A DNA stretch of 64,000 bases from Clostridia bacterium (GCA_022801925.1 JAAWTG010000012.1:1397-65396), one strand, 5' to 3'. Shown: positions 13,219 to 39,152, counted from the stretch's first letter. The notes: generated from the letters alone by a model not told the origin. Numbers and translations are program-made.

Positions 13219-14103
13219 ATGATATTAACAGGAACGATTGTAAAAGCTGTTTCCGGATTCTATTATGTAGAGACAAACGGCAGTGTTTATGAATGCAGGG
13301 CACGCGGCGTTTTTCGCAACAATAAACTAACGCCGCTTGTAGGCGATCACTGTGAAATGGAAGTGTTGGATAATTCGGAACAAAAAGGGAATGTAGTAAA
13401 ACTTCTGGAACGAAAAAACGCGTTTGTGCGTCCGCCCGTTGCAAATATTGACCAAATGGGAATTGTATTTGCCGCGGCGGCGCCTGACCCCATTCCATTT
13501 TTGATTGATAAATTAACGGTGGTAGCAGAACATCACCAGATTAAGCCGTTTTTAGTCATGAATAAAACGGATCTATCATCGGAAATTGCAGAACAATTGC
13601 CGCAGACTTATCAATTGGCAGGGTACCAGGTGTTTTGTGTTTCGGCTGTAGAAGGAAAAGGTATGGAAGCATTAAAAGAACAACTGCAAAATCAGGTAAC
13701 GGTGTTTGCCGGTTGTTCCGGTGTTGGGAAATCCAGTCTGCTGAATCTGCTGCATGATGACATTTGTTTGGAAACCGGCGGCGTTAGCCGTAAGATACAA
13801 CGTGGACGGCATACAACCCGAACAGTGGAGCTTTTTTCACTTGGGTCGAATACTTTTGTTGCAGATTCTCCTGGATTTAGCAACTTGGATATTCAGGATA
13901 TCCGTGTAACGGAATTAGAAGCATGTTTTCCTGAACTGCGCGAATATATAGGAAATTGCCGCTTTCGGGGCTGCAGCCATGTCAGTGAACCGGACTGCGC
14001 GGTACGCGCGGCGCTGGAACAAGGGCAAATTGCAAGGTCGCGTTATGAAAGTTATGTGCAGATGTATCAAACTTTAAAAGAGATTAAGGAGTGGCAAAGA
14101 TGA
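13219..14103 (+). CDS. rsgA: Ribosome small-subunit-dependent GTPase A (RsgA/CpgA).
   Basis: MILTGTIVKAVSGFYYVE... is an OB fold. It carries a circularly permuted GTPase (NKTDL...GCSGVGKSSL) and a C-terminal zinc knuckle (CRFRGCSHVSEPDC). Confidence 0.85.
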   Translation: MILTGTIVKAVSGFYYVETNGSVYECRARGVFRNNKLTPLVGDHCEMEVLDNSEQKGNVVKLLERKNAFVRPPVANIDQMGIVFAAAAPDPIPFLIDKLTVVAEHHQIKPFLVMNKTDLSSEIAEQLPQTYQLAGYQVFCVSAVEGKGMEALKEQLQNQVTVFAGCSGVGKSSLLNLLHDDICLETGGVSRKIQRGRHTTRTVELFSLGSNTFVADSPGFSNLDIQDIRVTELEACFPELREYIGNCRFRGCSHVSEPDCAVRAALEQGQIARSRYESYVQMYQTLKEIKEWQR

Positions 14104-14747
14104 TTCAAATAGCGCCGTCTCTATTGGCGGCAGATATATTACATATGGCAGATGAGGTGCGGAAGGTAGAAACGGCAGGATCAGATTTACTGCACGTGGA
14201 TATCATGGACGGACATTTTGTGCCAAACTTGTCTTTCGGACCTCATTTAGTAGCTGCTTTGAAAAAAATAACCACCTTGCCGCTGGATGTTCACCTCATG
14301 TTGACAAATCCGCTGCAATATATCGATTCTTTTGCGCAGAGCGGGGCAGATATCATTACCGTTCATGCGGAATGTCAAGATGATGTAGAAACATGTTTTG
14401 ATAAGATTAGGGCGCATGGCCTACGCTGCGGAATTGTTTTGAGTCCGGATACGCAGCCGGAGGCATATTTCCCATTGATTGATAAAGCTGATATGACGCT
14501 TGTGATGTCTGTTTATCCAGGTTTTGGCGGACAATCGTTTATTCCGGAAAGCTTAGAAAAAATCAAAACCATTCGTAGTCATACCGGTGCAGATTACCAG
14601 ATAGAAATTGACGGCGGTGTTTCAACTCAAAATATTGAGCGTATTATAGCGGCGGGGGCAAATGTCATTGTGGCAGGATCCGGTATTTTTCAATCGGTAG
14701 ATCCACGGAAAACCATAGAACAAATGAAGCAGGGAAGAACAGGGTGA
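14100..14747 (+). CDS. rpe: Ribulose-phosphate 3-epimerase.
   Basis: MIQIAPSLLAADILHM...HVDIMDGHFVPN is the Rpe signature. An ATGA overlap joins it to the rsgA stop. The ORF-track GTG start at 14091 lies inside the RBS. Confidence 0.9.
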   Translation: MIQIAPSLLAADILHMADEVRKVETAGSDLLHVDIMDGHFVPNLSFGPHLVAALKKITTLPLDVHLMLTNPLQYIDSFAQSGADIITVHAECQDDVETCFDKIRAHGLRCGIVLSPDTQPEAYFPLIDKADMTLVMSVYPGFGGQSFIPESLEKIKTIRSHTGADYQIEIDGGVSTQNIERIIAAGANVIVAGSGIFQSVDPRKTIEQMKQGRTG

Positions 14748-14751
14748 TACG

Positions 14752-15399
14752 GTGAGGGCGATTATTATTGCAAGCGGCGATATTGGGAATGAACGCTGGC
14801 TAAAAGAGTATATTCAGCCAGATGATGTTGTTATCTGTGCAGACGGAGGCTATAATCATCTCGCACGAATTGGATGTATGCCGGAGATTATCATTGGAGA
14901 TATGGATTCTATTCGTGAGGAATATCGCGCGGATTGCCGGCATTTGATACATCCGCGTAAAAAAGATGAAACGGATGCACAACTGGCGCTGGATTATGCG
15001 ATAGAAAACGGATTTCATGATGTGAAATTTTTGGGCGCATTGGGCGGTAAGCGCATAGAACATGCACTGGCGAATGTGTTGATGCTGCAATACGCATCAG
15101 TGCACGGTGTAAAACTAACAATAGAAACGCCCGTTTCTTCCATAACCATCCATCAAGGACCAACGATAGCCATGTTACAAGGACATACAGGAGATTATTT
15201 GTCACTTGTACCTATTGGCGGAGATGTTACCGGCATCACAACGCATCATTTGGAATACCCTCTGCATGACGGGACATTATATTTTGGCGTACCCATGGGA
15301 ATCAGTAATGTCCTGCTGGCGGATACTTGTTCGGTAGAATTACAGGAAGGAATATTACTTGCCATATTAACCAAAGCGGATGAGGTGGATGAAGATTGA
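14752..15399 (+). CDS. thiN: Thiamine diphosphokinase.
   Basis: MRAIIIASGDIG...VICADGGYNHL... is typical of TPK (YloS). It has a GTG start and sits next to rpe, as in B. subtilis. Confidence 0.8.
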   Translation: MRAIIIASGDIGNERWLKEYIQPDDVVICADGGYNHLARIGCMPEIIIGDMDSIREEYRADCRHLIHPRKKDETDAQLALDYAIENGFHDVKFLGALGGKRIEHALANVLMLQYASVHGVKLTIETPVSSITIHQGPTIAMLQGHTGDYLSLVPIGGDVTGITTHHLEYPLHDGTLYFGVPMGISNVLLADTCSVELQEGILLAILTKADEVDED

Positions 15400-16568
15400 A
15401 ACAGAAAGAAAAGAAAAAACATCATATCATGCCATGGGTCATTTTGATTATTGTCATTTTTGGCGCAACCTTTCTTATTACATATGCGAAACAAACAGGA
15501 ACCCTAGACCAAATAATGGTCATGGTACAACAGTATATTGGTACGCAGCAGCCTTCTGAAACAGAAGGTTTACCACAGGAAAGCCAAAATAAGGTCAAAA
15601 CGTTGGAAAATTCCGGCAACTATGGGTTTGCTGCATGGAAAGAACGTATTATTATGACCGGCAGCAGCAGTGTATCTCTGTTGGATCATAAGTTAAATGA
15701 AGTTTGGTATCAAAGTATTTCTGGAAAAAATCCATCGTTAGATACATCTACTTATGGAATGGTTGTTTATGATAAAGACGGAACCAACTTTTCCGTTATT
15801 ACAGAAGATGGAAAGCAAAACAGTGTAGCCACAGAGGCGATGATTGCCGCATCCATTAATGAAAAAGGATATGTGACAACCATTACAAAACAGCCTGGTT
15901 ATAAAGGCGGCGTCTGCGTTTACGATAATACCGGACAGGCACTATTTAAATGGAACTCCGGAAATTGGAATATTTTAGATGCCAAACTCTCGAATGATGG
16001 GAAAACGCTGGCAGTTTCCCTGCTTGACACTTCGGCAGGGCGCGCGAGCGGGAATGTGATGCTGTTTGATATTGCCGTTTCGGAAAAACCATTTGCCGGT
16101 ACGACCTATCCGGACAATATGGTGGCGGCGCTGAAATGGATGAATGGTCAAACATTATATTGTGTGGGGGATACTTCTGCTTTTGCGCTTTCCGCCAAAG
16201 GCGATAAGCTGTGGGAATATACCTATACAGGTACATTGACACAATTTGCAGTGGGGGATAACGGTATTTTGGCGTTAAATCTACAGGCATATTCTGCGGA
16301 ACCAGGAAAGCATGGTTTAATACAGATTATTAGTGCCAGCGGAAAGAAAACAGGTGAATGCACTATTTCTGATGAAGTGAAAAAAATCGAAGTTTTTAAA
16401 AATGACATATACGCCATGACATTGCGTGACATACATATTATCAATCAGTCAGGAAAAGAAAAATCAAATACATCGCTGGACAAAGATATGCGCAGCGCGT
16501 ATATTTTAAAGCAAGATGAGGCATTGATATTTTATGGAACAAAACTGGAGGTTGTCCCGCTGAACTAA
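15396..16568 (+). CDS. Hypothetical membrane-anchored protein. An N-terminal TM helix is followed by a repeat-rich, beta-propeller-like extracytoplasmic domain.
   Basis: A TTG start has GAGGTGG 5 nt upstream and overlaps the thiN stop. The N-terminus is KKKHH then IMPWVILIIVIFGATFLI (TM), followed by repeated G-rich, W/Y-containing segments. No family was recognised. Confidence 0.55.
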   Translation: MKQKEKKKHHIMPWVILIIVIFGATFLITYAKQTGTLDQIMVMVQQYIGTQQPSETEGLPQESQNKVKTLENSGNYGFAAWKERIIMTGSSSVSLLDHKLNEVWYQSISGKNPSLDTSTYGMVVYDKDGTNFSVITEDGKQNSVATEAMIAASINEKGYVTTITKQPGYKGGVCVYDNTGQALFKWNSGNWNILDAKLSNDGKTLAVSLLDTSAGRASGNVMLFDIAVSEKPFAGTTYPDNMVAALKWMNGQTLYCVGDTSAFALSAKGDKLWEYTYTGTLTQFAVGDNGILALNLQAYSAEPGKHGLIQIISASGKKTGECTISDEVKKIEVFKNDIYAMTLRDIHIINQSGKEKSNTSLDKDMRSAYILKQDEALIFYGTKLEVVPLN

Positions 16569-16630
16569 CGAAAAACTGGCATGATAGGAGTACTCATTTC
16601 CGTGGATGTGAAAGAAAGGGGAGAACTTTC

Positions 16631-17263
16631 ATGATTTTAGATGCCATATTTATTGCGGTACTGGTATGTGCCGTATGGATTGGTGTGAAACGTGGATTTA
16701 TTCGTTCCATTATCGGATTTATCACACTGCTGTTGTCCATTGTTTTGGCAATGTTTTTCTACCAACGTTTTTTGGATTTTGTACAAACTGTCCCGTTCCT
16801 GCGTCAGTTGCAGGAACAAATTTCTTTGACGATTGCACAGACGGCAGCGCCTATGCTGGCGGATAATCTTGACACGCTGCCTCCATTTATTATGCGTTTC
16901 ATTCCACAGGAAATGGTTATGAGCGGCGTACAAAATGTCTGTGATTGGATTGCACAGTCTTTGACGCAAGTATTGCTGTTTTTGATATTTACTATTTTAT
17001 TACATATTGTTATCCGGCTATGTGCAATGCTTCTTTTAGCACTAACGCATCTGCCGGTCATTCGCCAGTGTAACAGACTGCTTGGCGGTGGCTTTGGAGC
17101 AGTTACCGGAATTTTATTATGTTATTTATTAGCGGCGGTAATATTTATTATTAGTATGAATCCTGCCTATTCTTGGCTTTCGGATGAACTTTCCCGCTCT
17201 ATTATTTGCAGCTATTTTTATACAAACAACCTCATTGTCAATTTGGTGTTGGGGTTTCGATAA
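16631..17263 (+). CDS. CvpA-family membrane protein (colicin V production protein-like).
   Basis: MILDAIFIAVLVCAVWIGVKRGFIRSIIGFITLL... is the typical CvpA N-terminus. It has multiple TM segments, and an AAAGGGGAG RBS. Confidence 0.65.
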   Translation: MILDAIFIAVLVCAVWIGVKRGFIRSIIGFITLLLSIVLAMFFYQRFLDFVQTVPFLRQLQEQISLTIAQTAAPMLADNLDTLPPFIMRFIPQEMVMSGVQNVCDWIAQSLTQVLLFLIFTILLHIVIRLCAMLLLALTHLPVIRQCNRLLGGGFGAVTGILLCYLLAAVIFIISMNPAYSWLSDELSRSIICSYFYTNNLIVNLVLGFR

Positions 17264-17280
17264 AGAAAGGATGAAAAATT

Positions 17281-18345
17281 ATGGCTGGTATTTTTGGATT
17301 TTTTGATTACACAAAGCCTGGAAAAGGCGTTGAGAAAGGGGAACCGGAAAAGAAAGGAATCGCGCGCTTCGGTCAGTTATATTTCCGCAAATTTTGGAAA
17401 TATCTACAGCTTAATGTGCTATATTTTATTACTTGTATTCCTGCACTCTTGCTCTATTGGTTCATGTTTGTTTCCTATTTTGCGCCGATGTTCGAGTCGC
17501 TTATTACAACGCAGCAGGTTACGGCAGAACAAGTATATATGTCCGTGAACATATTGGCGATTGCCAGTGCAATTATCATTGTTTTGCTGTTTGGCGGAAG
17601 CCCTTGCGCGGCAGGGTTTCACTATATTTTACGCAATTATGTGCGGGAAGAACATTCTTGGCTTTGGAGCGATTTTTGGCGTCGGACAGGAAAAAATTTA
17701 AAACAGGCTTTCGCTATGTTTGTGATTGATTTGGTAGTTGTCAATTTATTACTGTTTGGAATCCGTTTTTACCATCAAATGGCCGCAAGCGCCAGTCCCA
17801 TGCATTTGCTTTATGTCTTTTTGTTGGCGCTAATCGTATTTGTGTTCGTGATTTATGCAGTGATGCATCAATATATCTGGACTATGATAGTCACGTTTGA
17901 ATTGAAATTGAAGCAAATTGTTAAAAATGCATTTCTATTAACGGTTATGGCATTTCCGCGCAATATCTTATTCATTATTGTGTCCGCCCTTTTTGCAGTT
18001 GGCGTTTATTTGTTGTATTTCTATCTATCGCCGTTGATTGGTGCGATTGTAACCTTCTTCTTGCTGATGTCGATTTATGGTCTGACGATGCAAATGTTTT
18101 CTTATCCGGTTATCCGCAAGTTTATGCTGGATCCATTAGAAGAAACAGAAGAAGAATATCATGTGGATGATGTACCGGAAAGTCCTACCGAACAAAAACA
18201 AGAGGAAGAAGTGAAATGGAACCGCATTGAGGAGCCGGATGAAAGCGTACTCACTTCCAGAAATGACGTTGCAAGCCTGTTTAACAAACGGCTGGAGGAA
18301 GATGATGTTAAAACATCAGACGAAAAAGATGCGAAAGACGAATAA
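17281..18345 (+). CDS. YesL-family (DUF624) membrane protein with an acidic C-terminal tail.
   Basis: MAGIFGFFDYTKPGKGVEKGEPEKKGIARFGQLYFRKFWKYLQLNVLYFITCIP... matches the DUF624/YesL N-terminus. Several TM helices follow, then an E/D-rich tail. Confidence 0.6.
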   Translation: MAGIFGFFDYTKPGKGVEKGEPEKKGIARFGQLYFRKFWKYLQLNVLYFITCIPALLLYWFMFVSYFAPMFESLITTQQVTAEQVYMSVNILAIASAIIIVLLFGGSPCAAGFHYILRNYVREEHSWLWSDFWRRTGKNLKQAFAMFVIDLVVVNLLLFGIRFYHQMAASASPMHLLYVFLLALIVFVFVIYAVMHQYIWTMIVTFELKLKQIVKNAFLLTVMAFPRNILFIIVSALFAVGVYLLYFYLSPLIGAIVTFFLLMSIYGLTMQMFSYPVIRKFMLDPLEETEEEYHVDDVPESPTEQKQEEEVKWNRIEEPDESVLTSRNDVASLFNKRLEEDDVKTSDEKDAKDE

Positions 18346-18419
18346 TCCGCTGAAATTCACTTACAATAATATAGTATCAATAACATTCATGGCTTTATGA
18401 GGTAGGGAGGTAGGATACA

Positions 18420-19676
18420 ATGGAGACCTATTCACTTCCGGGTGGTGTACAACTGCACTATCTGAAGACAGAACAATTCAAACATTTTTCGCTTGGCATC
18501 TATCTGGCGCGCCCGCTTTGCAAAGAAGAAGCATCCTATAACGCATTGCTCACACAGGTGCTAAAATCAGGCTGTACGGCATTTTCCACAAAACAGAAAA
18601 TTGCAGCGCATTTGGAATGGCTCTATGGCGCTTCTATGAATGCAGGCGTACAAAAAAAAGGTGAAGCACAGATTTTGACATTCCATTTTTCAGGAATTAA
18701 TGATAACTATGCACAAGGCGAAGCTGTTTCATCAAAGCTGGCGGCATTTGCAAAAGAAATTTTGTTTGCGCCACTGGTGCAAAACGGTGCATTTGATAAA
18801 GCGATTTTTCAAATTGAAAAAGAAGATTTGAAAAACGAAATTATGGCGCTGCAAAATGATAAACGTGATTATGCCAATCAACGTTGTTTAGAACTGATGT
18901 GCGACCAAGAAGCCTATGGCATTCATGAATTTGGTACATTGGAAGGGCTGGAAGAAATTACGCCGCAGTCGCTCTATCAACACTATCAGAAAATGATTGG
19001 AAACAGTCCGATTCATGTTTTTGTGACAGGTAATCTAGATGTTGCGCCCATTAAACAGCTATTTGAAACCGTGTCTGCTGCGCAGACGCTTCCACAGACA
19101 AAGCAGGGATCTATGCCGCAGCAAGTGAGAACCATTACAGAACCCATGGATGTAGCACAAGGGAAGCTGGTGCTTGGTATGCGCAGCAGTCTGCCGGATT
19201 CTTTGGAACAGTTTTGTCAAATGCAGGTATTCAATTCCGTATATGGCAGCGGTACGCATTCTAAATTATTTAATCATGTCCGTGAAAAATTGAGTTTGGC
19301 ATATTATGCTTATTCCAGATTCGTGCGCCAAAAAAACATTATTCTAGTTGCCACTGGAATTGAATTTCAAAATTACGAGCAAGCAAAATCGGAAATTTTG
19401 CTGCAATTAGAGGAAATCAAACAAGGAAATGTCACAGAAAAAGAAATGGATGCGGCAAAAGAATTTTTGAAAAACCGTTATTTATCTTGCTATGATGAAC
19501 CGGTTATGCTGGAAGATTTCTATTTGAGCAGCATTTTGGCAGGAGATGAGCAGGTCTCTATCAGCGATATTATCCAAGGCGTAGAGCGTGTCACAAAAGA
19601 CCAAGTGGTTGCAGCAGCAAAAAGTGTGGCGCTGGATTTGATTTATTTTATTTGCGGAAAGGATGAGACGGAATGA
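18420..19676 (+). CDS. M16-family peptidase homologue lacking the HxxEH zinc motif, so a likely non-catalytic partner subunit.
   Basis: It has an insulinase-like fold (GxxN..GxSxxL patterns) at 418 aa. The N-terminal region shows no HxxEH. It is translationally coupled (ATGA) to the next gene. Confidence 0.7.
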   Translation: METYSLPGGVQLHYLKTEQFKHFSLGIYLARPLCKEEASYNALLTQVLKSGCTAFSTKQKIAAHLEWLYGASMNAGVQKKGEAQILTFHFSGINDNYAQGEAVSSKLAAFAKEILFAPLVQNGAFDKAIFQIEKEDLKNEIMALQNDKRDYANQRCLELMCDQEAYGIHEFGTLEGLEEITPQSLYQHYQKMIGNSPIHVFVTGNLDVAPIKQLFETVSAAQTLPQTKQGSMPQQVRTITEPMDVAQGKLVLGMRSSLPDSLEQFCQMQVFNSVYGSGTHSKLFNHVREKLSLAYYAYSRFVRQKNIILVATGIEFQNYEQAKSEILLQLEEIKQGNVTEKEMDAAKEFLKNRYLSCYDEPVMLEDFYLSSILAGDEQVSISDIIQGVERVTKDQVVAAAKSVALDLIYFICGKDETE

Positions 19677-20944
19677 TGCAGAAAAAAGACTATTCAGATT
19701 TAAAAGAAACCGTTTATTCTTACCGGCATTCCAGCGGACTGCATATTTATATTGCCCCAAAACCGGAATTCCAGAAAAGCTGCGCCTATTTTGCAACGCA
19801 TTTTGGTTCCATCGACAACCATTTTGTTCCGCTGCAGTCGGAGCAATATATAAGGGTACCAGATGGTGTTGCACATTTTTTGGAACATAAAATGTTTGAG
19901 CAGCCGGACGGTGAAAATGTGTTCGATACATTTAGCAAATATGGCGCTTCCGCCAATGCATTTACTTCTTCGGATATTACGGCGTATTATTTTTGGTGTA
20001 CCAATGCATTTGAAGAAAACTTAAAAACATTGCTGCATTATGTACAAACGCCATATTTCACAGCGGAAAACGTGGCGAAAGAACAAGGTATTATCGGGCA
20101 AGAAATTCGTATGTATGATGATGACCCTAATTGGCGCGCCTTTTTTAACATGTTGGGCTGTTTGTATCACAATCATCCTGTAAAAGTGGATATTGCAGGA
20201 ACCGTGGAAAGTATTGCAAAAATCACAGAAGATACCTTATATACCTGCTATCATACATTTTACCATCCGTCTAACATGGCGCTTTGCATTGTAGCAAATG
20301 TCAGTGCAGAAAAAGTGAGAGAAACAATTGATAACACGCTGAAAGAAATGGAACCGGCGAAACCGGTTGCCCGAAAATATCCGGAGGAGCCGAAAACAAT
20401 TCATAAACCATATCAGGAAGCGGCGCTCAGCGTTTCTAAACCGTTATTTTATATTGGCTTTAAGGATTCGCAATTATATGAAGGAAAAGCATTGTTAAAA
20501 CATAAATTATGCTGCAAAATTGCACTGGATTTATTGCTTGGCAAGAGTTCGGAATTGTATAACGCGTTATATGAACAAGGATTGATTTCCAGCAGCTTTT
20601 CTTATGCATATACCGGCGGATTGGAATTTGCCTATACGGAAATTGCCGGAGAAAGCGATGACCCAAAACAAGTTGCCAAGCGGATACAGGAAGCGATTCA
20701 GGGATTTTCATTTTCTGATGAAGCGCTGGAACGAATGAAACGGATGCGCATGGGACGCTTTTTACGCGTGCTGGACGACGCAGAAGAATATACCAATATG
20801 TTTGCGCGTAATATTTTGCAAAATATTGATATGCTGGATAGCATACAGGTCTATCAGGAAATTACCAGAGCGGATATTGAAGCGATTTTTCAGTCACATT
20901 TAACGGCTGATAACATGGTTTTATCTGTTGTGAATCCGTTATAG
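19673..20944 (+). CDS. M16-family zinc metallopeptidase (insulinase/pitrilysin-like), the active subunit.
   Basis: HFLEHKMFE is the inverted zinc-binding HxxEH motif. It is 423 aa and paired with the upstream inactive homologue, as in YmfF/YmfH or AlbE/AlbF-type pairs. Confidence 0.8.
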   Translation: MMQKKDYSDLKETVYSYRHSSGLHIYIAPKPEFQKSCAYFATHFGSIDNHFVPLQSEQYIRVPDGVAHFLEHKMFEQPDGENVFDTFSKYGASANAFTSSDITAYYFWCTNAFEENLKTLLHYVQTPYFTAENVAKEQGIIGQEIRMYDDDPNWRAFFNMLGCLYHNHPVKVDIAGTVESIAKITEDTLYTCYHTFYHPSNMALCIVANVSAEKVRETIDNTLKEMEPAKPVARKYPEEPKTIHKPYQEAALSVSKPLFYIGFKDSQLYEGKALLKHKLCCKIALDLLLGKSSELYNALYEQGLISSSFSYAYTGGLEFAYTEIAGESDDPKQVAKRIQEAIQGFSFSDEALERMKRMRMGRFLRVLDDAEEYTNMFARNILQNIDMLDSIQVYQEITRADIEAIFQSHLTADNMVLSVVNPL

Positions 20945-20970
20945 AAATTGCATAATAGGTACAAAAGTGG

Positions 20971-21018
20971 CGTAATACGACAATTGTGATGGTTTGTGCT
21001 TACAATTGTCGTATTACG
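20971..21018. repeat. Perfect 17-bp inverted repeat (cgtaatacgacaattgt / acaattgtcgtattacg) around a 14-nt loop.
   Basis: Read directly: arm 1 is 20971-20987, the loop is gatggtttgtgctt, and arm 2 is 21002-21018. It starts 25 nt after the stop of the M16 operon. No U-tract follows on either strand. Confidence 0.5.
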
Positions 21019-21064
21019 ATAATTCCGGGGCAATTATTACATAGGAAAGGAATGTGGTATACAC

Positions 21065-21526
21065 ATGAAAAAATATATTTTGATTGCTGTCTGTTTGCTG
21101 TTATTGGGCTGTTTTACCAGCTGTGGGACACAAACACAGGAACAGCCTTCTCAAAACTATGAAAACGAGACATTAGGCTTCAGTTTTGAAGTGCCTAGTT
21201 CTTGGGCAGATGATTATGAAGTGAAAGAACATACTGAGAATGGAATCACATACACAGATTTTTATTATGTCTATGGTTGGCCGCAGCAAAAAACAACGTT
21301 GTTGGTTTCTATCATTGCAACAGATGAAAACACTTGGACAAACGGGCAGTTGGAAAATGAATATTATTTAATGGCAATCAATAAAGAAGGCGTTTATTTT
21401 GCAAACAAAGTGCCGAAGGTTCCTGAAGAAGTTCCATTTAAAGAAGGTTCTAAAAAGGCAAAAGAATTTCAAAAATTATTATTATCTGTTCAGGAAGCCG
21501 GAAAAATGTTTTCCTTAATAAAATAA
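21065..21526 (+). CDS. Small lipoprotein of unknown function.
   Basis: MKKYILIAVCLLLLGCFTSCG is a signal peptide plus lipobox (LLGC). It is 153 aa with an AGGAAAGGA RBS. Confidence 0.7.
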   Translation: MKKYILIAVCLLLLGCFTSCGTQTQEQPSQNYENETLGFSFEVPSSWADDYEVKEHTENGITYTDFYYVYGWPQQKTTLLVSIIATDENTWTNGQLENEYYLMAINKEGVYFANKVPKVPEEVPFKEGSKKAKEFQKLLLSVQEAGKMFSLIK

Positions 21527-21588
21527 AGCAACCACTATCCATTATACATTGCAGAAATATTACAATTTCATGAAATAGCTTCATTTTG

Positions 21589-21621
21589 GAGCCTGTTTGC
21601 TTGACAAACGGCTCCATTTTT
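21589..21621 (+). terminator. Rho-independent terminator for the lipoprotein gene.
   Basis: ggagcctgtttg-cttga-caaacggctcc has a one-base bulge and is followed by attttt. Its descending arm contains the -35 box of the next promoter. Confidence 0.5.
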
Positions 21622-21629
21622 GTTAAAAT
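21601..21629 (+). promoter_or_regulatory. Sigma-A type promoter of the recombinase gene (TTGACA-17-TAAAAT).
   Basis: ttgaca at 21601-21606, a 17-nt spacer (aacggctccatttttgt), and taaaat at 21624-21629. The ATG at 21689 is about 52 nt after the predicted start site. Confidence 0.6.
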
Positions 21630-21663
21630 CTAATTAGACAAAATATTAATTTTGTCTAATTAG
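21630..21663. promoter_or_regulatory. Perfect 34-bp palindrome with 11-6-11 architecture (attagacaaaa-tattaa-ttttgtctaat), abutting the -10 box and covering the predicted +1. It is an operator and/or a dif-like core recombination site.
   Basis: ctaattagacaaaat-atta-attttgtctaattag read directly. The two 15-bp arms are exact reverse complements. It lies immediately upstream of the tyrosine recombinase gene at the strand-switch region. Confidence 0.6.
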
Positions 21664-21688
21664 AAGAAAAAAGAATGAGGTGAACGAA

Positions 21689-22648
21689 ATGTCTACATAT
21701 GTGGATAGCCCTCCTATCTTACGCGACTTTTTAAATTATCTTTCTGTTATTAAAGGAAAATCAGATGGCACTGTAAAAGAATATTATTATGACCTTCGTA
21801 CATTTTTTCGCTTTATGAAGATATACCGGAATTTAGCAACGCAAAATTATGATGAATTAGACCGAGTGATAATTGCAGATATTGACACAGCGTTTCTGCA
21901 AACAATTACGCTGAGTGATTTATATGAATTTTTATCTTTTGTAAACCGCTATAAAAAAAATGCAGCGCCGGCGCGCGCACGTAAGGTTGCAAGCTTGCGT
22001 TCCTTTTTTCACTACGTTACCAGCAAAGCAGGTATTTTAAAAGAAAATCCGGCAGCAGACCTAGAAACGCCTAAACTCAAAAAAACACAGCCCAGATACC
22101 TCACCTTGGAAGAATCCAGAAAACTCGTTGGTGTTGTGAGCCAAACCATGAATGAGCGTGATATTTGTATCATTACGTTGTTTCTAAACTGCGGCGTTCG
22201 TTTATCAGAATTATTGAATATCAATATCAGCGATATCCACGGCGACAGTATACGGATTTTGGGAAAAGGAAACAAAGAACGGTTTATTTATCTGAATGCA
22301 CCTTGTACAACTGCGCTGCAAAACTATCTGCGCGTCCGTCCTGTGGAGGGCGTGATAGACCGCGATGCATTGTTTATTTCCAAACAAAAACGGCGTATCA
22401 GTACAAAAATGGTGGGTGTGATTGTGAAAAAATATATTGAGCAGTCCGGTCTTGACCCTACAAAATATTCTCCGCACAAACTACGGCATACGGCTGCCAC
22501 GCTGATGCACCGCTACGGTCATGTAGACGTCCGTATTCTCCAAGAAATTTTAGGTCACCAAAATCTTTCCACAACGCAAATATATACGCATTTGGAAAAT
22601 GAACAGATTCGCGATGCTATGAAGCACAATCCGCTGAACGAAGGATAG
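21689..22648 (+). CDS. Tyrosine-type site-specific recombinase (XerC/XerD-like).
   Basis: It has a SAM-like N-domain and a catalytic domain with the residues R (GVRLSEL), HxxR (KLRHTAAT), H (LGHQNLSTT) and the Y nucleophile (IYTHL). A GAGGTG RBS lies 6 nt before the ATG at 21689. The ORF-track GTG start at 21680 is inside the RBS. Confidence 0.85.
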   Translation: MSTYVDSPPILRDFLNYLSVIKGKSDGTVKEYYYDLRTFFRFMKIYRNLATQNYDELDRVIIADIDTAFLQTITLSDLYEFLSFVNRYKKNAAPARARKVASLRSFFHYVTSKAGILKENPAADLETPKLKKTQPRYLTLEESRKLVGVVSQTMNERDICIITLFLNCGVRLSELLNINISDIHGDSIRILGKGNKERFIYLNAPCTTALQNYLRVRPVEGVIDRDALFISKQKRRISTKMVGVIVKKYIEQSGLDPTKYSPHKLRHTAATLMHRYGHVDVRILQEILGHQNLSTTQIYTHLENEQIRDAMKHNPLNEG

Positions 22649-22656
22649 AAACAACC

Positions 22657-22869
22657 CTATTCCCTATATTTTATCTGAATAAATTGAACCAATGCGTTAA
22701 AACCATATTCCAATGTAACAAAAAATGTTGTACGATTGCTATTGCCACTAAAATAATAACCGGCGTTCGTTTTCGCAATATTACTAAAATCAATATGGCG
22801 ATTAAACATAAAAACAAAAGATACCATTCCAATAGAATAATATTCATAACCAAAGACCCCCTTTTTCAT
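22657..22869 (-). CDS. Possible small protein of 70 aa with unknown function. Doubtful.
   Basis: MKKGVFGYEYYSIGMVSFVFMFNRHIDFSNIAKTNAGYYFSGNSNRTTFFVTLEYGFNALVQ... has non-biased composition, but the RBS is weak. It lies in the AT-rich islet, convergent on the recombinase with a 9-bp gap. It conflicts with an overlapping hydrophobic 60-aa frame. Confidence 0.25.
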   Translation of the reverse strand: MKKGVFGYEYYSIGMVSFVFMFNRHIDFSNIAKTNAGYYFSGNSNRTTFFVTLEYGFNALVQFIQIKYRE

Positions 22870-22874
22870 TTGTC

Positions 22875-22904
22875 AGACACATTCCAGCCAGATGGAATGT
22901 GTCT
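22875..22904. terminator. Hairpin (12-bp perfect arms, 6-nt loop) at the point where + and - transcription units converge. A likely bidirectional terminator.
   Basis: agacacattcca-gccaga-tggaatgtgtct. On the + strand it is followed by ctatgttcttttttt. It abuts the stop codon (22905-22907) of the minus-strand 97-aa ORF. Confidence 0.45.
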
Positions 22905-23198
22905 CTATGTTCTTTTTTTACTCCGGATAAGTAAAATGAAATCAATCAGATATCCTACCATAGCCCCGAGTGTCAATGTGCTAATGAACAGCAGCATAAA
23001 TTCCAACATATAATTCGTGCGCAGATTGGACAGCAATTCACAAATGATATAGACACACAAAGAAATACCAATATGAATGGCAATTTTCTTTGTGTGTTTT
23101 ATTCGTAGTCCAATCACAATAAAAACAATCAGTCCGATTGCAAAAAAGATAAAGGTGTCTGATTCAAACAATTCCTGTAAAATTGGTAAATACCGCAT
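22905..23198 (-). CDS. Small hydrophobic membrane protein of 97 aa with about 3 TM segments and unknown function.
   Basis: An AGAGAGGGA RBS lies about 7 nt before the ATG. It sits 44 nt after the scrK stop, so it is probably the last gene of the sucrose operon transcript. The Ile/Leu-rich composition could partly reflect the AT-rich DNA. Confidence 0.45.
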   Translation of the reverse strand: MRYLPILQELFESDTFIFFAIGLIVFIVIGLRIKHTKKIAIHIGISLCVYIICELLSNLRTNYMLEFMLLFISTLTLGAMVGYLIDFILLIRSKKRT

Positions 23199-23242
23199 TG
23201 TGATTCCCTCTCTATTGCGGTTTCGTATTCTTTCCTAAAATT

Positions 23243-24208
23243 CTATTGTTCACTACGCATCAATGCTTCAATTTCAGCGCGTTCCGGCATGACTTTCAGC
23301 GCGCCTTTTTTGGTAGTAATCAAGGCAGCGCCGGCGTTTGCAAAAAGAAGTGTTTTTCGCAAATTTTCTGCTGTTATATGTTCTATCCCATAAGTCAGAA
23401 CAGAGTGCAGTGCACAGCCTGTAAAGGTATCTCCTGCCCCCGTTTTTTCGATTGTATGCACATTCATAAACGGTTTTGCTTCAACTATAATATCACGATA
23501 ATATGCTCTGCTTCCATCTTTGCCAAGTGTCACAAATACCAATGGCAGGCCATAATTCTCACGGAGCATACGCACCCCTTCTGTATAATCTGTGGTTCCG
23601 GTCATGAATTCCAGTTCATTATCAGAAATTTTTAGGATATCGCACTTTGACAATCCATATGCAATTGCCTTTTTTGCGTCCTCCAGCGAATCCCAAAGCG
23701 GTTCGCGCAGATTGGGATCAAAGGAAACAAGCAATCCATTTTCTTTGGCAATGTCAACTGCATGGTGTGTAGCTTCACGCACACACTCGTGTGTCATAGA
23801 AAGCGTACCAAAGTGAAATATTTTTGCGGCTTTTATGACGTCCTTCTGCACTTCATCCTGGCGGAGCATCATATCAGCACCCGGATTGCGGTAGAAACTA
23901 AACGCACGTTCACCCTCCAGAAACGTATGTACAAATGCCAGTGTCGTATGAACTTCGCCGTCCATTAAAAGATTGGTTACATCAATTCCACTTTCAGCCG
24001 CAGCTGTTTTTAGCATAGCACCAAAGTGGTCGTCCCCTACCTTGCCCATAAACGCTGTTTTTCTGCCGAGCTTACTTAACATAGCAAGTACATTGCAGGG
24101 CGCACCGCCCGGATTCGCTTCCAAAATCGGATTTCCCTGCGTGCTGATACCATTTTCTGTAAAATCCACCAACAATTCGCCAAGCGCAACAACATCGAAT
24201 TTTTTCAA
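23243..24208 (-). CDS. scrK: PfkB-family carbohydrate kinase, probably a fructokinase.
   Basis: MKKFDVVALGELLVDFT...GGAPCNV... carries the PfkB signature. It also has the C-terminal motif TGAGDTF. It lies downstream of a GH32 gene. Confidence 0.8.
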   Translation of the reverse strand: MKKFDVVALGELLVDFTENGISTQGNPILEANPGGAPCNVLAMLSKLGRKTAFMGKVGDDHFGAMLKTAAAESGIDVTNLLMDGEVHTTLAFVHTFLEGERAFSFYRNPGADMMLRQDEVQKDVIKAAKIFHFGTLSMTHECVREATHHAVDIAKENGLLVSFDPNLREPLWDSLEDAKKAIAYGLSKCDILKISDNELEFMTGTTDYTEGVRMLRENYGLPLVFVTLGKDGSRAYYRDIIVEAKPFMNVHTIEKTGAGDTFTGCALHSVLTYGIEHITAENLRKTLLFANAGAALITTKKGALKVMPERAEIEALMRSEQ

Positions 24209-24222
24209 TGGTTTCTCCCCCT

Positions 24223-25533
24223 CTATTCAATTGCATATAGTACCGGTGCATTTTCAGTATTTGTAGTCATATATTCGCCAAGCTGATATACAACATTGGT
24301 AATCACATATTCCCCGTTGTTGATATAAGTTTCTATTAAATTTTGGTCTACATAAATATCCAAATGAATTTTACCGCGTATTTCCGGTGAAGAAAACTTC
24401 GTTTTGATGTCCGTATGTCCGTGAAATACCGCTGTACGGTCAGTATAAATTTTGTTGCCGGCCCTAGAAATCATATATCCGCCAATGTTTATCTGTTCGC
24501 CATCATTGATATCAAGACATACACGGTATCCGGCAGCATTCGCTTCCTGCACTGCATTGATTTTTTTCGTATATTGTTTTTGAATATTGGGGTGAACCGC
24601 AAAGCAAATATGTCCGTTTCGTACACTCACTACGCGTGGAATGCAAAACATGCCACTCCACTCATGATTAACCGGCTGTGGCATTCTTGCCCACGCGACG
24701 ACAACGCGGCGACCTTCAGCATCTGTGGTACTTTGTGGCGCATATAAATCTAGTCCGTAATCCAACATCTGGTATTCATTTGGTATGTCCATGGTGCAGT
24801 CTGTTTCATCAAACGTAACTTTTGTACATATTGACACATGCTGATATTTTTGTTTGTCTGCCCGCAACCCCATAGGAGAAAAAATAAGTATCTTTTCGCC
24901 GTCCAGCTCAAAATAGTCAGGGCATTCCCACATATAACCCAATCCTTTTTTGGATACGCTGTTGACATAGTCCCAATTCATTAAATCATCACTGCGATAG
25001 AACAGCAGTTTTCCGGCATTTTCCGGTGTCTTGCTCCCCAACACCATATACCATGCATCTTTGCCGCGCCAAACCTTGGGGTCCCGCGTATCCGTCATAC
25101 AGCCGATTTCCGGATTCGTCAGCGTTTCTATAACAGTCGTTTTATTTTTGCTATTGTCAAAATGTATACCATCTTCGGAAATCAGCATCATCTGTGCGGA
25201 AACAAGTTGTTCATTCAAAAAAACATGAATATCCTCCGGATTTTCTTCCAGATAACGGACACCGGTATAATACAAGTACATTTTCCCATCATGTTCAATA
25301 GCGCTGCCGGAATAGCAACCGTTTCTGTCATTCCATTTGGAAGGAAATAAAGCGATTGGCAGGTGTTCCCAATGCACTAAATCTTTGCTTACAGCATGTC
25401 CCCAGTGCATCGTCCCCCAGCGCGGTTCATAAGGGAAATGCTGATAAAACAAATGATATTGACCTTTATAATAAATAAATCCATTGGGATCGTTTATCCA
25501 ATTTGCCGGCGATTTTAAGTGTATTTTTTGCAT
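24223..25533 (-). CDS. Glycoside hydrolase family 32: sucrose-6-phosphate hydrolase or beta-fructofuranosidase. It is intracellular, with no signal peptide.
   Basis: WINDPNG (the catalytic Asp motif), RDP and EC motif regions are present (MWECPD), at 436 aa. Confidence 0.85.
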   Translation of the reverse strand: MQKIHLKSPANWINDPNGFIYYKGQYHLFYQHFPYEPRWGTMHWGHAVSKDLVHWEHLPIALFPSKWNDRNGCYSGSAIEHDGKMYLYYTGVRYLEENPEDIHVFLNEQLVSAQMMLISEDGIHFDNSKNKTTVIETLTNPEIGCMTDTRDPKVWRGKDAWYMVLGSKTPENAGKLLFYRSDDLMNWDYVNSVSKKGLGYMWECPDYFELDGEKILIFSPMGLRADKQKYQHVSICTKVTFDETDCTMDIPNEYQMLDYGLDLYAPQSTTDAEGRRVVVAWARMPQPVNHEWSGMFCIPRVVSVRNGHICFAVHPNIQKQYTKKINAVQEANAAGYRVCLDINDGEQINIGGYMISRAGNKIYTDRTAVFHGHTDIKTKFSSPEIRGKIHLDIYVDQNLIETYINNGEYVITNVVYQLGEYMTTNTENAPVLYAIE

Positions 25534-25578
25534 GACAGCGTCTCCTAGCGTTTGTTCATGAAAAGAAATTTAATTTTA

Positions 25579-25617
25579 AAATGGCGGAAATCTTTTCCTA
25601 TGAGAGATTCCCGCCAT
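25579..25617 (-). terminator. Hairpin downstream of the PrsA-like gene, a putative terminator.
   Basis: aatggcggaaatc / gattcccgccatt form a 13-bp stem with one mismatch and an 13-nt loop. On the - strand it is followed by uuuaaaauuaaauuucuuuuc. Confidence 0.4.
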
Positions 25618-25630
25618 TAGTCGTTGTTTA

Positions 25631-26680
25631 TTATTTTGAAGAAGATGTTTTAAATTCCAGTTTTGATAGTTCTTTTTCGTTGCGTTCAACCGTCATTGCC
25701 GCTGCTGCATCTTTTAATACTTTATCAAATTTTTCGGACAACAATGCATTTTCCACATGCATAGCACCTGTCACATTTTGCTGAATCTGTTCTGCTTTAA
25801 ATGTTTCATAATCTGCATCCGTCAGTTCGACTCGTTTCAAAATATGATAACCATAGGCGCCTTTCACAATGTCGCTGACAGCACCAGGTTCCAGCGCATA
25901 TGCGGCAGCTTCAAACGGCGGGTCCATCATATTTTTACCAAAGACATATCCGTTCGGATTGCTCGCCAAGCCCGGGTCTTCACAGCGTTCATTCATCAGC
26001 GTATCGAAATCAGCACCGCCCTGTAACTCTGCCAATGTATCTTTGGCGCTCTGCTCCTTCTGTGCCGCGGTCGCTTCGTCCAAAGGCTGACGATTATCAT
26101 CTACAGTGGAGAACAATATATGTTTTGCTTTGACATAATGCTCAAAGAAATAGGTTTTCAGCGTTTCATCGTCTGGCTGGTATTCCGGATTTTCCTGCGT
26201 ATATTTATTAAAAAGCATATTCATTAGATAGCTTTTCTCATAAACACTTTTTACAGCCTCATCTGTTGTACCGATTTCCTTTAAATAGGCTTTATATTTA
26301 TCTTCACCGCCTGCACTTTGCACCAATTGATTGCGGACATTGTTGACATATTGATTGCTTTGATTATCTGGTTTGATACCGGCTTCTTCCGCTTTTTGTG
26401 CTCCGACATACAACTGCACCAATTGTTCCATTGCTTCATCATGGACAGCTTCTTTTGCATTTTTACCTTCATATGTCGCTGTTTCCCAGTCCACGTTCCC
26501 ATCGGTACTGATTTTCTGTGAAACCATACTCTTGCTGCTTTCAAAAATATACTTATACTCCGCAAGCGGTACTTGTTGCCCATTAATTGTTGCTGCATAA
26601 GCAATATTTTCGATAGTACAGCCCGAAAGCAGTAACATTGCTGCCAGCAGCACCCCTGTCATTTTCGCAATATGTTTCAT
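25631..26680 (-). CDS. prsA: PrsA-like foldase lipoprotein (parvulin-type peptidyl-prolyl isomerase).
   Basis: MKHIAKMTGVLLAAMLLLSGC is a lipoprotein signal. The parvulin domain is ...KAKHILF...GAVSDIVKGAYGYHILK. Confidence 0.8.
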   Translation of the reverse strand: MKHIAKMTGVLLAAMLLLSGCTIENIAYAATINGQQVPLAEYKYIFESSKSMVSQKISTDGNVDWETATYEGKNAKEAVHDEAMEQLVQLYVGAQKAEEAGIKPDNQSNQYVNNVRNQLVQSAGGEDKYKAYLKEIGTTDEAVKSVYEKSYLMNMLFNKYTQENPEYQPDDETLKTYFFEHYVKAKHILFSTVDDNRQPLDEATAAQKEQSAKDTLAELQGGADFDTLMNERCEDPGLASNPNGYVFGKNMMDPPFEAAAYALEPGAVSDIVKGAYGYHILKRVELTDADYETFKAEQIQQNVTGAMHVENALLSEKFDKVLKDAAAAMTVERNEKELSKLEFKTSSSK

Positions 26681-26757
26681 TTGTTTATCCTCTCTTTCGT
26701 GTCTGATAAATATTTTTTAATATACCTTATTATACACTATTTTAAGTCTCAATGCAA

Positions 26758-29700
26758 TCATTTCATTGAATTTAATAGTTCCGCAATGGTATCTAATATT
26801 TTTTCTTCATTTGTCTCCTGCATTAAATAGGTTAAATAAGGTTTTTCGCCGTTGGAAAACAACAGTTTTCCGAGATGTGTTTTCGCAAGTTCTTTGATTT
26901 TTTCCGGCTGCAACGTACAGTTTGGCGCAAGATAAAACAACAAACGGTCGTTTCTCTGCATAATATCTGTGATGCCGCAGGCGGATGCTTGATGTTTTAA
27001 AAGCGCAATCCGAATCAAATGCGTGACGGGCACCGGCGGTTCCCCGAAGCGGTCAATCACTTCATCTGTCACATCTCGGGCATCCTGGAGCGTTGTCACA
27101 GACGCAATCCGCTTATAGAGTTCAATCCGCAGCGCATGGCTGTCAATAAATTCATCAGGGATATAGGCGTTGACATTCAATTCAATGGACGTCATAATGT
27201 CTTCTTCTACCACTTTTCCCTGCTGCTGTGCAATTGCTTTTTGCAGCAGATTGCAATACATATCATATCCGACGGCTTCCATAGCGCCGTGCTGCTGTGC
27301 GCCAAGCAGGTTACCGGCGCCGCGAATTTCCAAATCCCGCATGGCAATTTTAAAACCGGAACCGAATTCCGTAAATTCTTTGATTGCCATAAGCCGTTTT
27401 ACTGCCACCTCTTGCAGGGATTTATCTTTCCGATAGGTAAGATAACAATAGGCTAATCGGTTGGAGCGCCCTACCCTGCCGCGCAGTTGGTAAAGCTGGG
27501 ATAGTCCCATGCAGTCCGCATTTTCTATGATAATGGTATTGATGTTTGGAATATCCAGTCCGGTTTCAATAATGGTGGTGCAGACCAGAATATCAATATC
27601 GCCCGCTAAGGTGTCCATCATGATTTCTTCCAGTTCCCGCTCGCTCATTTTTCCGTGACCGACTGCGATGCGGGCTTCCGGTACCATTTTGGAAATTTCA
27701 TCCGCAATCCGCTCAATCCCCTCCACACGGTTGTGGACATAGTAGACCTGTCCGCCGCGTCCCAGTTCCTTTTGAATGGCTTCCCGCAAAACGTCGCGGT
27801 CATATTCCAAAATGAACGTTTGCACAGGATGACGGTTTTCCGGCGGATTGGATATCACACTCATGTCTCGAATACCAATCATTGCCATGTGCAATGTGCG
27901 TGGAATAGGCGTTGCTGTTAATGTTAAAACATCAATATTTTGTTTCAATGCTTTGATTTTTTCTTTATCTTTGACGCCAAAACGCTGTTCTTCATCAATA
28001 ATCAACAGACCTAAATCCTGAAAAGATACATCCTTTTGCAGCAATCGATGCGTACCGATAATGATATTAACGCTGCCATTTGCCACTTTTTGAACAATTT
28101 GCTTTTGTTGTTTTGGCGTGCGGAACCGACACAGCATTTCAATCTGAATCGGATAGTCTTTCATTCTCTGCTGGAACGTATTATATTGCTGTTGTGCCAA
28201 AATGGTAGTCGGCACCAAATATGCCACTTGCTTATTTTCCATGACCGCTTTAAATGCCGCGCGGATAGCAACTTCTGTTTTTCCAAATCCAACGTCGCCG
28301 CAAAGCAAACGGTCCATAGGTTTTGAGGATTCCATGTCCTGTTTAATCTCTGCAATACAGGAAAGCTGGTCTTCCGTTTCTTCATATTCAAACGCTTGCT
28401 CAAAAGCGTTTTGCCAATCGGTATCCGGCGCAAATGCAAAGCCTTTTGTGGTTTGACGCTGCGCATAGAGTTCCACTAGTTGTTTTGCAATGTCCTCCGC
28501 ATTTTTCTGCACCCGCGCTTTTGCCTTTGCAAATTCATTGCCGCCCATTTTGTTCAGTTTCACACCTGTTGCGTCTGCTCCGAGATATTTGTTGATACTG
28601 TCGAGCTGCGTCGCAGGAACATAGAGAATATCATTTCCTTTATAGACAATTTTTAAGTAGTCCTTAATTTTTCCGTCTACTTCAATACGGTTGATGCCAA
28701 GATACCGCCCAATTCCGTGCACTTGATGAACAACATAATCCCCTTCTTCAAGGTCTTGATAGGAACGGATACGCTCCCCTTTCATTTTCCGTTTCCGTAC
28801 TTTTTTCCGCTGCCCGCCAAACAATTCACGGCTACTGATAAACACATGTCCCAGTAGCGGATATTCAAATCCTCGAGAATAAGAGCCTTCGTGCAGCACA
28901 ACTTGCCCTGCTTCGGCGGGCGTTCCGTCTTCACAAATGGTGGAAGAAATACCATGCTCCAGCAACGTCTGCGCGAATGTTTGCGCGCGGCTCAGTGTGC
29001 CAACCAAGACATCTACGGCATATTGTTTCCCATACCAATACGCCATATCCTCCAGTATTAAGTTCATATTCCCCTGATACGCCTGTAGATTTCGTGCTGT
29101 GATATTGACAGAGCAAGTGGGGCGGATATATTCATTTTGCGTATGAATACCGCTTATACAAACGACTGTTTTTGTTTTCAACAGCCCTGCAATATCATAG
29201 CTGTCCAGCATATAACTTCCCTTCAACTGCGGCATTTTATTATGCTCAATCAATTCCGCAAGCTGGCTGTGAAATTCTTTCATAAGCGTATCACAGCGGT
29301 CAAACAGCCCGTTGGGATAGTCCAAAAAGATGAGGTCGTCTGCACCAAAATAGGAAAACAGAGTTGGCAACTGCTGATATAGCAGTGGAATATATTTGTC
29401 TACTGCCGGAAAATAGTGCTGCTGACGGAATGCTTCAATATCTTGCCGGATATCGCTGCTCAAATTCAAATGTTTCATTTGTTCCAACGCTGCGGCTACA
29501 TTTTCAGCCATTTCTTTATCGTAAACAGCTTCCCGGCAGCAAATAATTTGAATTTCATCTGTAAGCGGCTGGGAACGCTGCGTTTCAGGGTCAAAGCAGC
29601 GAACCGTATCCACTTCATCATCAAAAAATTCTATACGCAGCGGCTGGTCGCCTGCCGGAGAATAGATATCTAAAATCCCTCCACGAATACTGAATTGTCC

Positions 29701-39149: not shown

Positions 39150-39152
39150 CTT

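Follow-up and report, generated by a model that had tools for sequence, protein, structure and literature searches.

The 64-kb stretch of Clostridia bacterium DNA analyzed here (GCA_022801925.1 JAAWTG010000012.1:1397-65396; hereafter, the window) very likely spans the replication terminus of a Clostridia chromosome, marked by a dif-like palindrome beside the gene for an Xer-type tyrosine recombinase. A replication terminus by itself is an ordinary feature; the interest lies in the module that marks it. Judged by comparison with related sequences, the palindrome and the recombinase gene appear to form a clostridial variant, not described so far, of the dif/Xer system of chromosome-dimer resolution. 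The two constitute the conserved core of the region and are the best evidence for interpreting it as a terminus, which an initial annotation had proposed for positions 20945 to 23242 from a switch in gene strand and in the skew of guanine over cytosine (GC skew).

Strand and compositional switch in the 64-kb window

GC skew was computed in 2-kb intervals, with a finer pass at 400-bp resolution. It was positive in each 2-kb interval within 1-22000 (+0.111 to +0.209), stood at -0.001 in the interval 21001-23000, and was negative in each interval within 22001-64000 (-0.102 to -0.230), a uniform pattern, far outside chance, that bears out the skew switch described initially. The cumulative curve peaks at ~21.6-22.4 kb, with its computed maximum at 22441; at 400-bp resolution it levels off from ~21.4 kb and drops from ~22.4 kb. 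AT skew switches sign alongside GC skew, the exceptions being two membrane-protein genes. Intergenic DNA taken alone flips as well, with a skew of +0.088 left of the switch and -0.202 right of it, so that coding strand does not account for all of the signal. Among non-nested open reading frames (ORFs) of at least 100 amino acids (aa), all 21 between 716 and 22648 are on the + strand and all 33 between 22905 and 63978 are on the - strand, with zero exceptions. The orientation switch is therefore exact as first described, the earlier counts of 26 and ~36 genes having taken in smaller ORFs.

G exceeds C and A exceeds T on the + strand to the left of the switch and on the - strand to its right. 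In Firmicutes, converging genes with G and A enriched toward the switch are the signature of a terminus. Since the genes converge and the cumulative skew shows a maximum, the switch is read as a terminus and not as an origin. The positions of recombinase orthologues in three complete chromosomes, 42-50% of the way along, agree with this reading: 49.5% in A. thermocellus CP013828.1, 42.0% in A. clariflavus CP003065.1, and 42.4% in P. thermosuccinogenes CP021850.1, all percentages presuming that the three records begin near oriC.

The compositional switch and the gene-strand switch do not coincide. The first lies at the palindrome, upstream of the recombinase gene, and the second lies ~1.2 kb further right, at 22.65-22.9 kb. 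The coding strand of the recombinase gene has a GC skew of -0.010, against 0.151 +/- 0.043 (z = -3.8), making it the only one of 54 genes with a value of 0 or less; its skew at third codon positions is -0.041. The placement of the compositional switch upstream of the gene follows from this lack of G richness in the coding strand, and the recombinase gene appears to be the sole gene in the window encoded head-on to replication.

GC content reaches its minimum for the window at the switch (0.368-0.371 at 20-23 kb and 0.307 at 21.4-21.8 kb, compared with at least 0.40 elsewhere), consistent with the AT-rich region reported initially, and the lipoprotein gene, recombinase gene, palindrome, hairpins, and small ORFs listed for this region are all found there. 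The accessory character ascribed to the lipoprotein and recombinase genes did not hold, as both are kept in order in relatives with an 86-97% identical recombinase. A variable part does exist, but it occupies 22.65-25.6 kb, mostly beyond the interval in which it had been placed.

A palindromic site upstream of the recombinase gene

The dif-like site is the sequence ATTAGACAAAA-TATTAA-TTTTGTCTAAT, present in one copy in the window. It ends 28 nt before the start codon of the recombinase gene, with a Shine-Dalgarno sequence in between. The predicted sigma-70-type promoter of that gene, which is the best promoter match of the region, lies immediately to its left, and the predicted transcription start falls ~7 nt past the promoter, within the left arm of the palindrome. 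The promoter is kept in four relatives, and the same layout is seen in L024, L028, L035, and L079.

The site was followed in 80 loci from species-representative genomes, in further loci obtained via exact-protein look-up, and in 120 metagenome stretches. Across about 200 related stretches there is one palindrome site per locus. A relative of the palindrome was found in ~60 of 88 genome loci, mostly 43-200 bp upstream of the recombinase gene, the commonest form being ATTATACAAAA-N6-TTTTGTATAAT. Perfect 11/11 palindromes make up 55 of the 63 collected sites, with 20 different arm sequences; the chance expectation of a perfect 11-6-11 palindrome is ~0.005 per 20 kb. Arm positions 1-8 vary symmetrically, the last three positions, by the centre, are invariably AAA/TTT, and the central 4 nt vary freely. 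In the relatives with an 86-97% identical recombinase, the arms are invariant and only one position, within the central 4 nt, is substituted (ATTA to ACTA); the promoter is likewise kept, and the remaining spacer is diverged or deleted. Fixed arms around a free centre are what characterizes a tyrosine-recombinase core site.

In Clostridium sensu stricto a variant such as ACGTCGCTAAA-TATACA-TTTAGCGACGT occupies the same position. Variants in L022, L070, and L072 (Clostridium simiarum, C. cadaveris, and C. hydrogeniformans), such as ACTTCGCTAAA-TATACA-TTTAGCGAAGT, are similar in their arms to the XerC-side arm and the centre of dif from Bacillus (ACTTCCTAGAA-TATATA-...). The resemblance of the sensu stricto arms to Bacillus dif hints at a route by which a symmetric site may have arisen.

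Other identities for the palindrome were considered. It is not the terminator of the lipoprotein gene, for which a separate hairpin with a T-run precedes it, and it does not match the LexA, CodY, Rex, or Fur boxes, on which grounds a known global operator was rejected. A Bacillus-type dif site (ATTATGTnAAC-type core) was also sought in the window; three matches with 3 mismatches were present, compared with 4.5 expected, none of them near the switch.

Position of the site relative to the skew flip in other genomes

The association of the site with the skew flip was assessed in 45 loci with at least 3 kb on either side of the site. Left skew exceeded right skew in all 45, with a sign flip from + to - in 41. 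The median distance from the cumulative skew maximum to the site was 1.0 kb, whereas random positions in these loci gave 3.8 kb. In loci with gene and site apart, the skew maximum is closer to the site: 1.3 kb from the site versus 4.6 kb from the gene in A. thermocellus (L003), 0.24 versus 2.4 kb in L014, 1.4 versus 3.5 kb in L054, and 62 bp versus 2.0 kb in A. clariflavus (L085). The A. clariflavus site sits between the 3' ends of a convergent gene pair. In the genomes with gene and site apart, the site cannot serve as a promoter or leader of the recombinase gene. All 120 metagenome stretches had one site each; 47 of them extend 1.5 kb or more to either side of it, and an Xer gene is present in 30 of these.

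The Xer-family recombinase

The protein encoded next to the palindrome has a Pfam Phage_integrase domain (1.3e-34) and a SAM-like N domain, and the catalytic set R-K-HxxR-H-Y is aligned throughout. Scores against the NCBIfam models were 216.6 bits for XerC (cutoff, 335.15), 195.5 bits for XerD (329.6), 191.1 bits for XerA (220), and 136.6 bits for XerS (267). As every score is below the curated equivalog cutoff, membership of XerC, XerD, XerA, and XerS was ruled out. The nearest solved structures are E. coli XerD (1A0P; 5.5e-33) and Pyrococcus XerA (4A8E; 1.8e-32), with XerH distant at 1.6e-15. More than 8,000 database matches to the recombinase family in Clostridia were scored, the best 120 having 55-97% identity. 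The family is named XerC by the Prokaryotic Genome Annotation Pipeline (PGAP).

Phages and a prophage at the site

A search of a plasmid collection with the 2.3-kb region around the switch gave one match only, of 145 bp at 72% identity, which led to the 504-kb record NZ_AP023421.1 of Pusillibacter faecalis (L235). At 2147-7445 this record contains a complete 5.2-kb gokushovirus-like prophage with an F capsid protein (579 bits), Chp2 scaffold protein, ORF5, and Rep, and with no integrase. The order is radA, a degenerate site (ATTGAGCAAAA-TAATAC-AATTGTTCAGT), the prophage, an intact site (ATTAAACAAAA-TAAAAA-TTTTGTTCAAT), 57 bp, and xerC, and the cumulative skew maximum falls at the left prophage junction. 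At the E. coli dif site, a gokushovirus likewise lies between a conserved and a degenerate site, and experiments showed that integration needs XerC, XerD, and a dif motif on the phage (PMC7062461). XerCD-type integration has also been proposed for microviruses of Bacteroidetes (PMC3091885), and gokushovirus prophages were found only in enterobacteria in the 2020 study (PMC7062461). The layout in L235 matches that of Xer-dependent integration, a hint that the palindrome may be a recombination target.

NZ_AP023421.1 is labelled as plasmid pMM59_01. It carries radA, ruvA, ruvB, ruvC, a sigma-70 factor, and its own xerC with a dif-like site at ~46% of its length, and it behaves as part of a chromosome or a chromid rather than as an ordinary plasmid.

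Exact copies of both arms were found in 18 IMG/VR contigs, for which the chance expectation is negligible. Three of these are host-like and include an Xer gene. The other 15 are phage-like (L093, L095, L096, and L098-L109), fall into five sequence groups, and have no tyrosine recombinase detectable in the stretch examined. In the phage-like contigs the packaging module contains the site, which is placed between terS and terL or right after the portal gene, and the central regions are private, GC-richer, and unlike the host sites seen. By analogy with loxP of phage P1 and cer of plasmids, these phages could use the host Xer recombinase for cyclization or multimer resolution. The three contigs of 4.7-6.3 kb (L093, L104, and L108) are not microviruses, as they encode terminase, portal, and primase-like proteins. 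Microvirus genes were also missing from the four examined GenBank records named "Bacteriophage sp." (records of 4-8 kb with Xer homologues). These four (MT837697.1, MT837041.1, MT837240.1, and MT837796.1; L236-L239) are unverified 6- to 8-kb human-faecal scaffolds with Xer homologues at 42-45% identity and are probably bacterial terminus fragments filed as phage.

Relationship to known Xer systems

One parallel is the XerC/XerD dif system of E. coli and its B. subtilis counterpart, CodV/RipX. The clostridial site shares with it the 11-6-11 architecture, the length of 28 bp, the AT richness, and the location at the skew shift-point, as well as the arrangement of a gokushovirus prophage between a conserved and a degenerate site (PMC7062461); the recombinase belongs with XerC and XerD in one family, and among named models these two give it the highest scores. 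The two differ in that the clostridial arms are identical, whereas canonical dif combines a degenerate XerC arm with a conserved XerD arm, and in that the clostridial gene adjoins the site and probably one recombinase acts. The clostridial site also has no match to the Firmicutes dif consensus (PMC3025954). Other dif sites, those of single-recombinase systems included, have partial dyad symmetry only (bioRxiv 10.1101/2021.09.12.459815).

Reviews list XerS, XerH, and XerA as single-recombinase systems, joined by XerL since 2022. In difSL, the site of XerS, A-tracts border the central region, a feature common to the clostridial site. XerS/difSL of streptococci and lactococci also consists of a single Xer gene linked to a site just upstream, at a Firmicutes terminus (PMC1914069, PMC2965235), a similarity of design and not of membership. 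The clostridial protein has 319 aa, compared with 360 positions in the XerS model, and falls well short of its cutoff (see above); the clostridial site is 28 bp and perfectly symmetric, while difSL is an atypical 31 bp (PMC5357621). XerL/dif of Legionellales (bioRxiv 10.1101/2021.09.12.459815) resembles the clostridial system in its long uninterrupted inverted arms (10-12 bp in XerL and 11-12 bp here), in being a single recombinase missed by dif searches based on E. coli and on B. subtilis, and in that a site-mimicking mobile element revealed or supported the system. XerL differs in belonging to another recombinase clade and to Proteobacteria, and the L. pneumophila gene is >400 kb from dif, compared with usually 40-200 bp here. 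XerL has genetic tests behind it, whereas the clostridial system is proposed from sequence comparison. XerH/difH of Helicobacter and Campylobacter and archaeal XerA/dif (PMC3325230, PMC5241119, PMC5357621) are likewise single-recombinase systems, and in XerH and some archaea the gene lies close to its site. In sequence, XerA is almost as similar to the clostridial protein as XerD is, and XerH is distant; the hosts and site sequences of XerH and XerA differ from those described here.

The design of the site also recalls Cre/loxP. In that system of phage P1, the arms are symmetric and directionality resides entirely in the asymmetric centre; loxP, which is phage encoded, has arms of 13 bp and a spacer of 8 bp. 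The clostridial system differs from it in being a chromosomal housekeeping system of the Xer family.

A published dif prediction based on B. subtilis placed the site 137-176 degrees from the skew shift in four C. botulinum genomes and gave no result for C. perfringens and C. beijerinckii. No description turned up when full texts were searched for the sequence of the site and for clostridial Xer/dif, which is not proof of novelty.

Alternative explanations

Several observations weigh against interpreting the module as a dif/Xer system. The collected sites were chosen for near-palindromy, and so the symmetry counts are partly built in. The palindrome overlaps the recombinase promoter and the 5' end of its mRNA, and an extended -10 element, TGTATAAT, is found within the commonest arm, so that regulation could explain some of the conservation of the palindrome. 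About one-quarter of the related loci have no site within 10 kb, and in several of the site-less loci (L005, L010, L012, L018, and L053) the gene lies off the skew flip; such loci may represent paralogues or unlinked arrangements. No Xer gene is nearby at 17 of the 47 well-flanked metagenome sites. The recombinase lacks the C-terminal patch by which E. coli XerD contacts FtsK (our reading of the alignment and PMC5357621), and a second Xer partner may be encoded elsewhere in the genome. In a search for FtsK-orienting sequences, the strand preference of many 6- to 8-mers reversed at the switch (GAAAGAA, 22:0, and GAAGAAG, 23:4, among others); because all genes are co-oriented with replication, these polar k-mers are inseparable from coding bias. 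Finally, our view covers 64 kb, and the uniqueness and position of the palindrome hold for that window only.

It is possible, if unlikely, that the terminus is real but that the palindrome is an operator or a hairpin of the 5' untranslated region, the true dif site being asymmetric, located elsewhere, and shared with a XerD-type partner. The position of the palindrome, across the predicted transcription start and shortly before the start codon, would suit such a role, as would its ability to fold as a 16-bp RNA hairpin, the extended -10 element in the commonest arm, and the Shine-Dalgarno-like flank that usually comes next; the PGAP name XerC also favors this reading. However, even with 1.3-9 kb between it and the gene, the site stays at the skew flip, in A. 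clariflavus between convergent 3' ends, and arm variants that are not promoter-like are still perfect palindromes. Variation is confined to the central 4 nt and spares the arms, as in a recombination core and not as in the loop and stem of a hairpin. Two copies of the site flank a microvirus prophage that has no integrase, and the window contains no canonical dif.

We consider it very improbable that the switch is the border of a large inversion or of another local rearrangement. Only 64 kb is visible, and an inversion that excludes both origin and terminus would also give a sharp flip. A rearrangement of this kind would have to be reconciled with the finding that 41 of 45 loci, drawn from many Clostridia families, have a + to - flip at the junction of recombinase gene and palindrome, with the synteny kept over the junction in the relatives with an 86-97% identical recombinase, and with the orthologues at 42-50% of three complete chromosomes.

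Scarcely credible is the idea that an integrated mobile element lies by chance at the switch, with the recombinase as its integrase and the palindrome as its attachment site. Tyrosine recombinases are typical of mobile elements, the region is AT-rich, the DNA next to it varies, and the site also occurs in phage-like contigs. Yet there is one site and not a flanking pair, no element genes are present, and the recombinase gene is a conserved, single-copy-looking Clostridia orthologue with affinity to the Xer family rather than to phage integrases. The variable DNA is strain specific and lies beyond the far side of the gene, whereas the module is fixed.

That the switch is a replication origin can be dismissed almost entirely: sharp switches of skew and strand occur at origins too, and pth and mfd, both found here, are origin-proximal in Bacillus subtilis, but the polarity is the opposite one (converging genes, a cumulative skew maximum, and G and A enriched on the strand read toward the switch), and the window has none of dnaA, dnaN, gyrB, recF, and parAB among its annotated genes and no DnaA-box cluster (19 near-matches, compared with 17.3 expected).

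Proposed mechanism and distribution

For a dif-like site resolved by an Xer recombinase at the terminus, we infer binding and recombination at the site by a recombinase acting alone, under FtsK control, and with autoregulation. Because the arms are identical, one protein would bind both of them, probably as a homodimer. When homologous recombination has produced a chromosome dimer, the two copies of the site would meet at the closing septum, probably through an FtsK/SpoIIIE translocase, and strand exchange over the 6-bp centre would add a crossover that converts the dimer to monomers. The identity of the arms would also leave directionality to the nonpalindromic centre, perhaps together with a one-sided G-rich flank. 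Since transcription of the recombinase gene is predicted to start within the site, recombinase bound there would probably repress its own synthesis.

The G-rich flank, with the motif T-N-R-GGG-R-GG, is present on one side in 38 of the 63 sites (including L003, L024, L047, L059, L062, and L068). Its side predicts the orientation of the A-rich centre in 34 of 36 informative sites. The flank is often the Shine-Dalgarno sequence of the recombinase gene, yet it is kept where the gene is kilobases away. In 11 loci the unit of site and flank is inverted relative to the gene; in L068, the sole one of these in which ORFs were checked, no ORF follows the flank. Some copies of the flank match octamers resembling FtsK-orienting polar sequences (KOPS) or SpoIIIE recognition sequences (SRS), and the window (21661-21688) has a weak version only.

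We tentatively extend this scheme beyond the window, while regarding the extension as somewhat more doubtful than not. Much of Clostridia, including gut Oscillospiraceae, Ruminococcaceae, the Acetivibrio group, and Clostridium sensu stricto, may use an undescribed single-recombinase Xer system with a loxP-like symmetric 28-bp dif site that lies on the gene's own promoter and takes its polarity only from the centre and the one-sided G-rich flank. Microviruses and tailed phages may exploit this site, some by integrating and others, with the site in the packaging module, perhaps by cyclizing or resolving multimers. A conserved and readily recognizable site of 28 bp beside an Xer gene would mark the terminus precisely in thousands of genomes and metagenome bins of Clostridia, and dimer resolution in Clostridia would become directly testable. 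It would also provide a natural marker-excision tool for genetically difficult anaerobes and show integrase-less phages of gut bacteria to have an attachment site of a new kind.

Features around the switch and genomic context

The features of the region are collected in Table 1. The lipoprotein gene adjoins the recombinase gene in the genus-level relatives L001, L231, L232, and L233, and the stem of its terminator shows compensatory substitutions among relatives. The hairpin at 20971-21018 is probably a local transcript-end or stability element outside the conserved module. The only other match in the window to the 17-nt pattern of its arms has 3 mismatches, and the hairpin is missing in the 86% relative L001, where a different terminator is present.

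Table 1. Features at and near the switch, with positions in the window
Feature	Position	Strand	Remarks
Left replichore end	1..21632	+ leading	20/20 long genes (yicC to lipoprotein gene) co-oriented with replication
Hairpin, perfect 17-bp stem, 14-nt loop, no T-run	20971..21018	.	Between M16 peptidase and lipoprotein genes
Lipoprotein gene, 153 aa, signal peptide with lipobox	21065..21526	+	Last leading-strand gene of left replichore
Intrinsic terminator of lipoprotein gene, stem (hairpin 21593-21611) then T-run	21593..21620	+	
Predicted sigma-70-type promoter of recombinase gene	21601..21629	+	TTGACA, 17 nt, TAAAAT, TG extension (11/12)
dif-like 28-bp perfect palindrome	21633..21660	.	11-bp arms, 6-bp centre; dyad symmetry over 21629-21664
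Right replichore end	21661..64000	- leading	33/33 long genes from 22905 co-oriented with replication
Xer-family tyrosine recombinase gene, 319 aa	21689..22648	+	ATG at 21689; ORF opens at GTG 21680
Intrinsic terminator, 12-bp stem (hairpin 22875-22904), 6-nt loop, T-run	22875..22920	+	Ends rightward transcription where gene blocks meet
Small hydrophobic ORF, 97 aa, no family match	22905..23198	-	First - strand ORF, putative coding
Variable accessory segment, PfkB sugar kinase and GH32 fructosidase	23243..25533	-	Pfam

The 97-aa ORF at 22905-23198 is missing in L001, and a 63-aa ORF is in the same place in L233. The content of 22649-25600 differs by relative: none of it is present in L001, only pfkB is present in L233, and L231 and L232 have unrelated genes and an AraC regulator. 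By its gene content, this segment is a putative accessory-gene hot spot at the terminus.

The remainder of the window is chromosomal housekeeping DNA. By Pfam annotation, the left block includes yicC, gmk, rpoZ, coaBC, priA, def, fmt, rsmB, and rlmN, together with genes for a PP2C phosphatase, the PASTA kinase prkC, rsgA, rpe, thiamin pyrophosphokinase, and two M16 peptidases. The right block includes a prsA-like gene, mfd, pth, serA, serC, lysA, purL, argS, ftsW/rodA, and rho, followed in the annotation by dxs, thiI, a cysteine desulfurase gene, dnaE, whiA, rapZ, murB, and hprK. The initial annotation had raised the possibilities that the contig derives from a plasmid or that dnaA/oriC lies nearby; this gene content, the single weak plasmid match, and a window with neither dnaA nor a DnaA-box cluster speak against both.

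No candidate for an RTP or Tus terminator protein was seen among the small ORFs of the region, and no search aimed at fork traps was made. An Rfam scan of 20-24 kb gave just two matches, both at chance level, and the 64-kb window has no tRNA genes. Three conserved-looking ORFs within housekeeping operons, at 17281-18345, 41260-42480, and 48291-48800 (354, 406, and 169 aa, respectively), could be assigned to no Pfam family under the thresholds applied; the first of them corresponds to a DUF624 protein in the relative L001.

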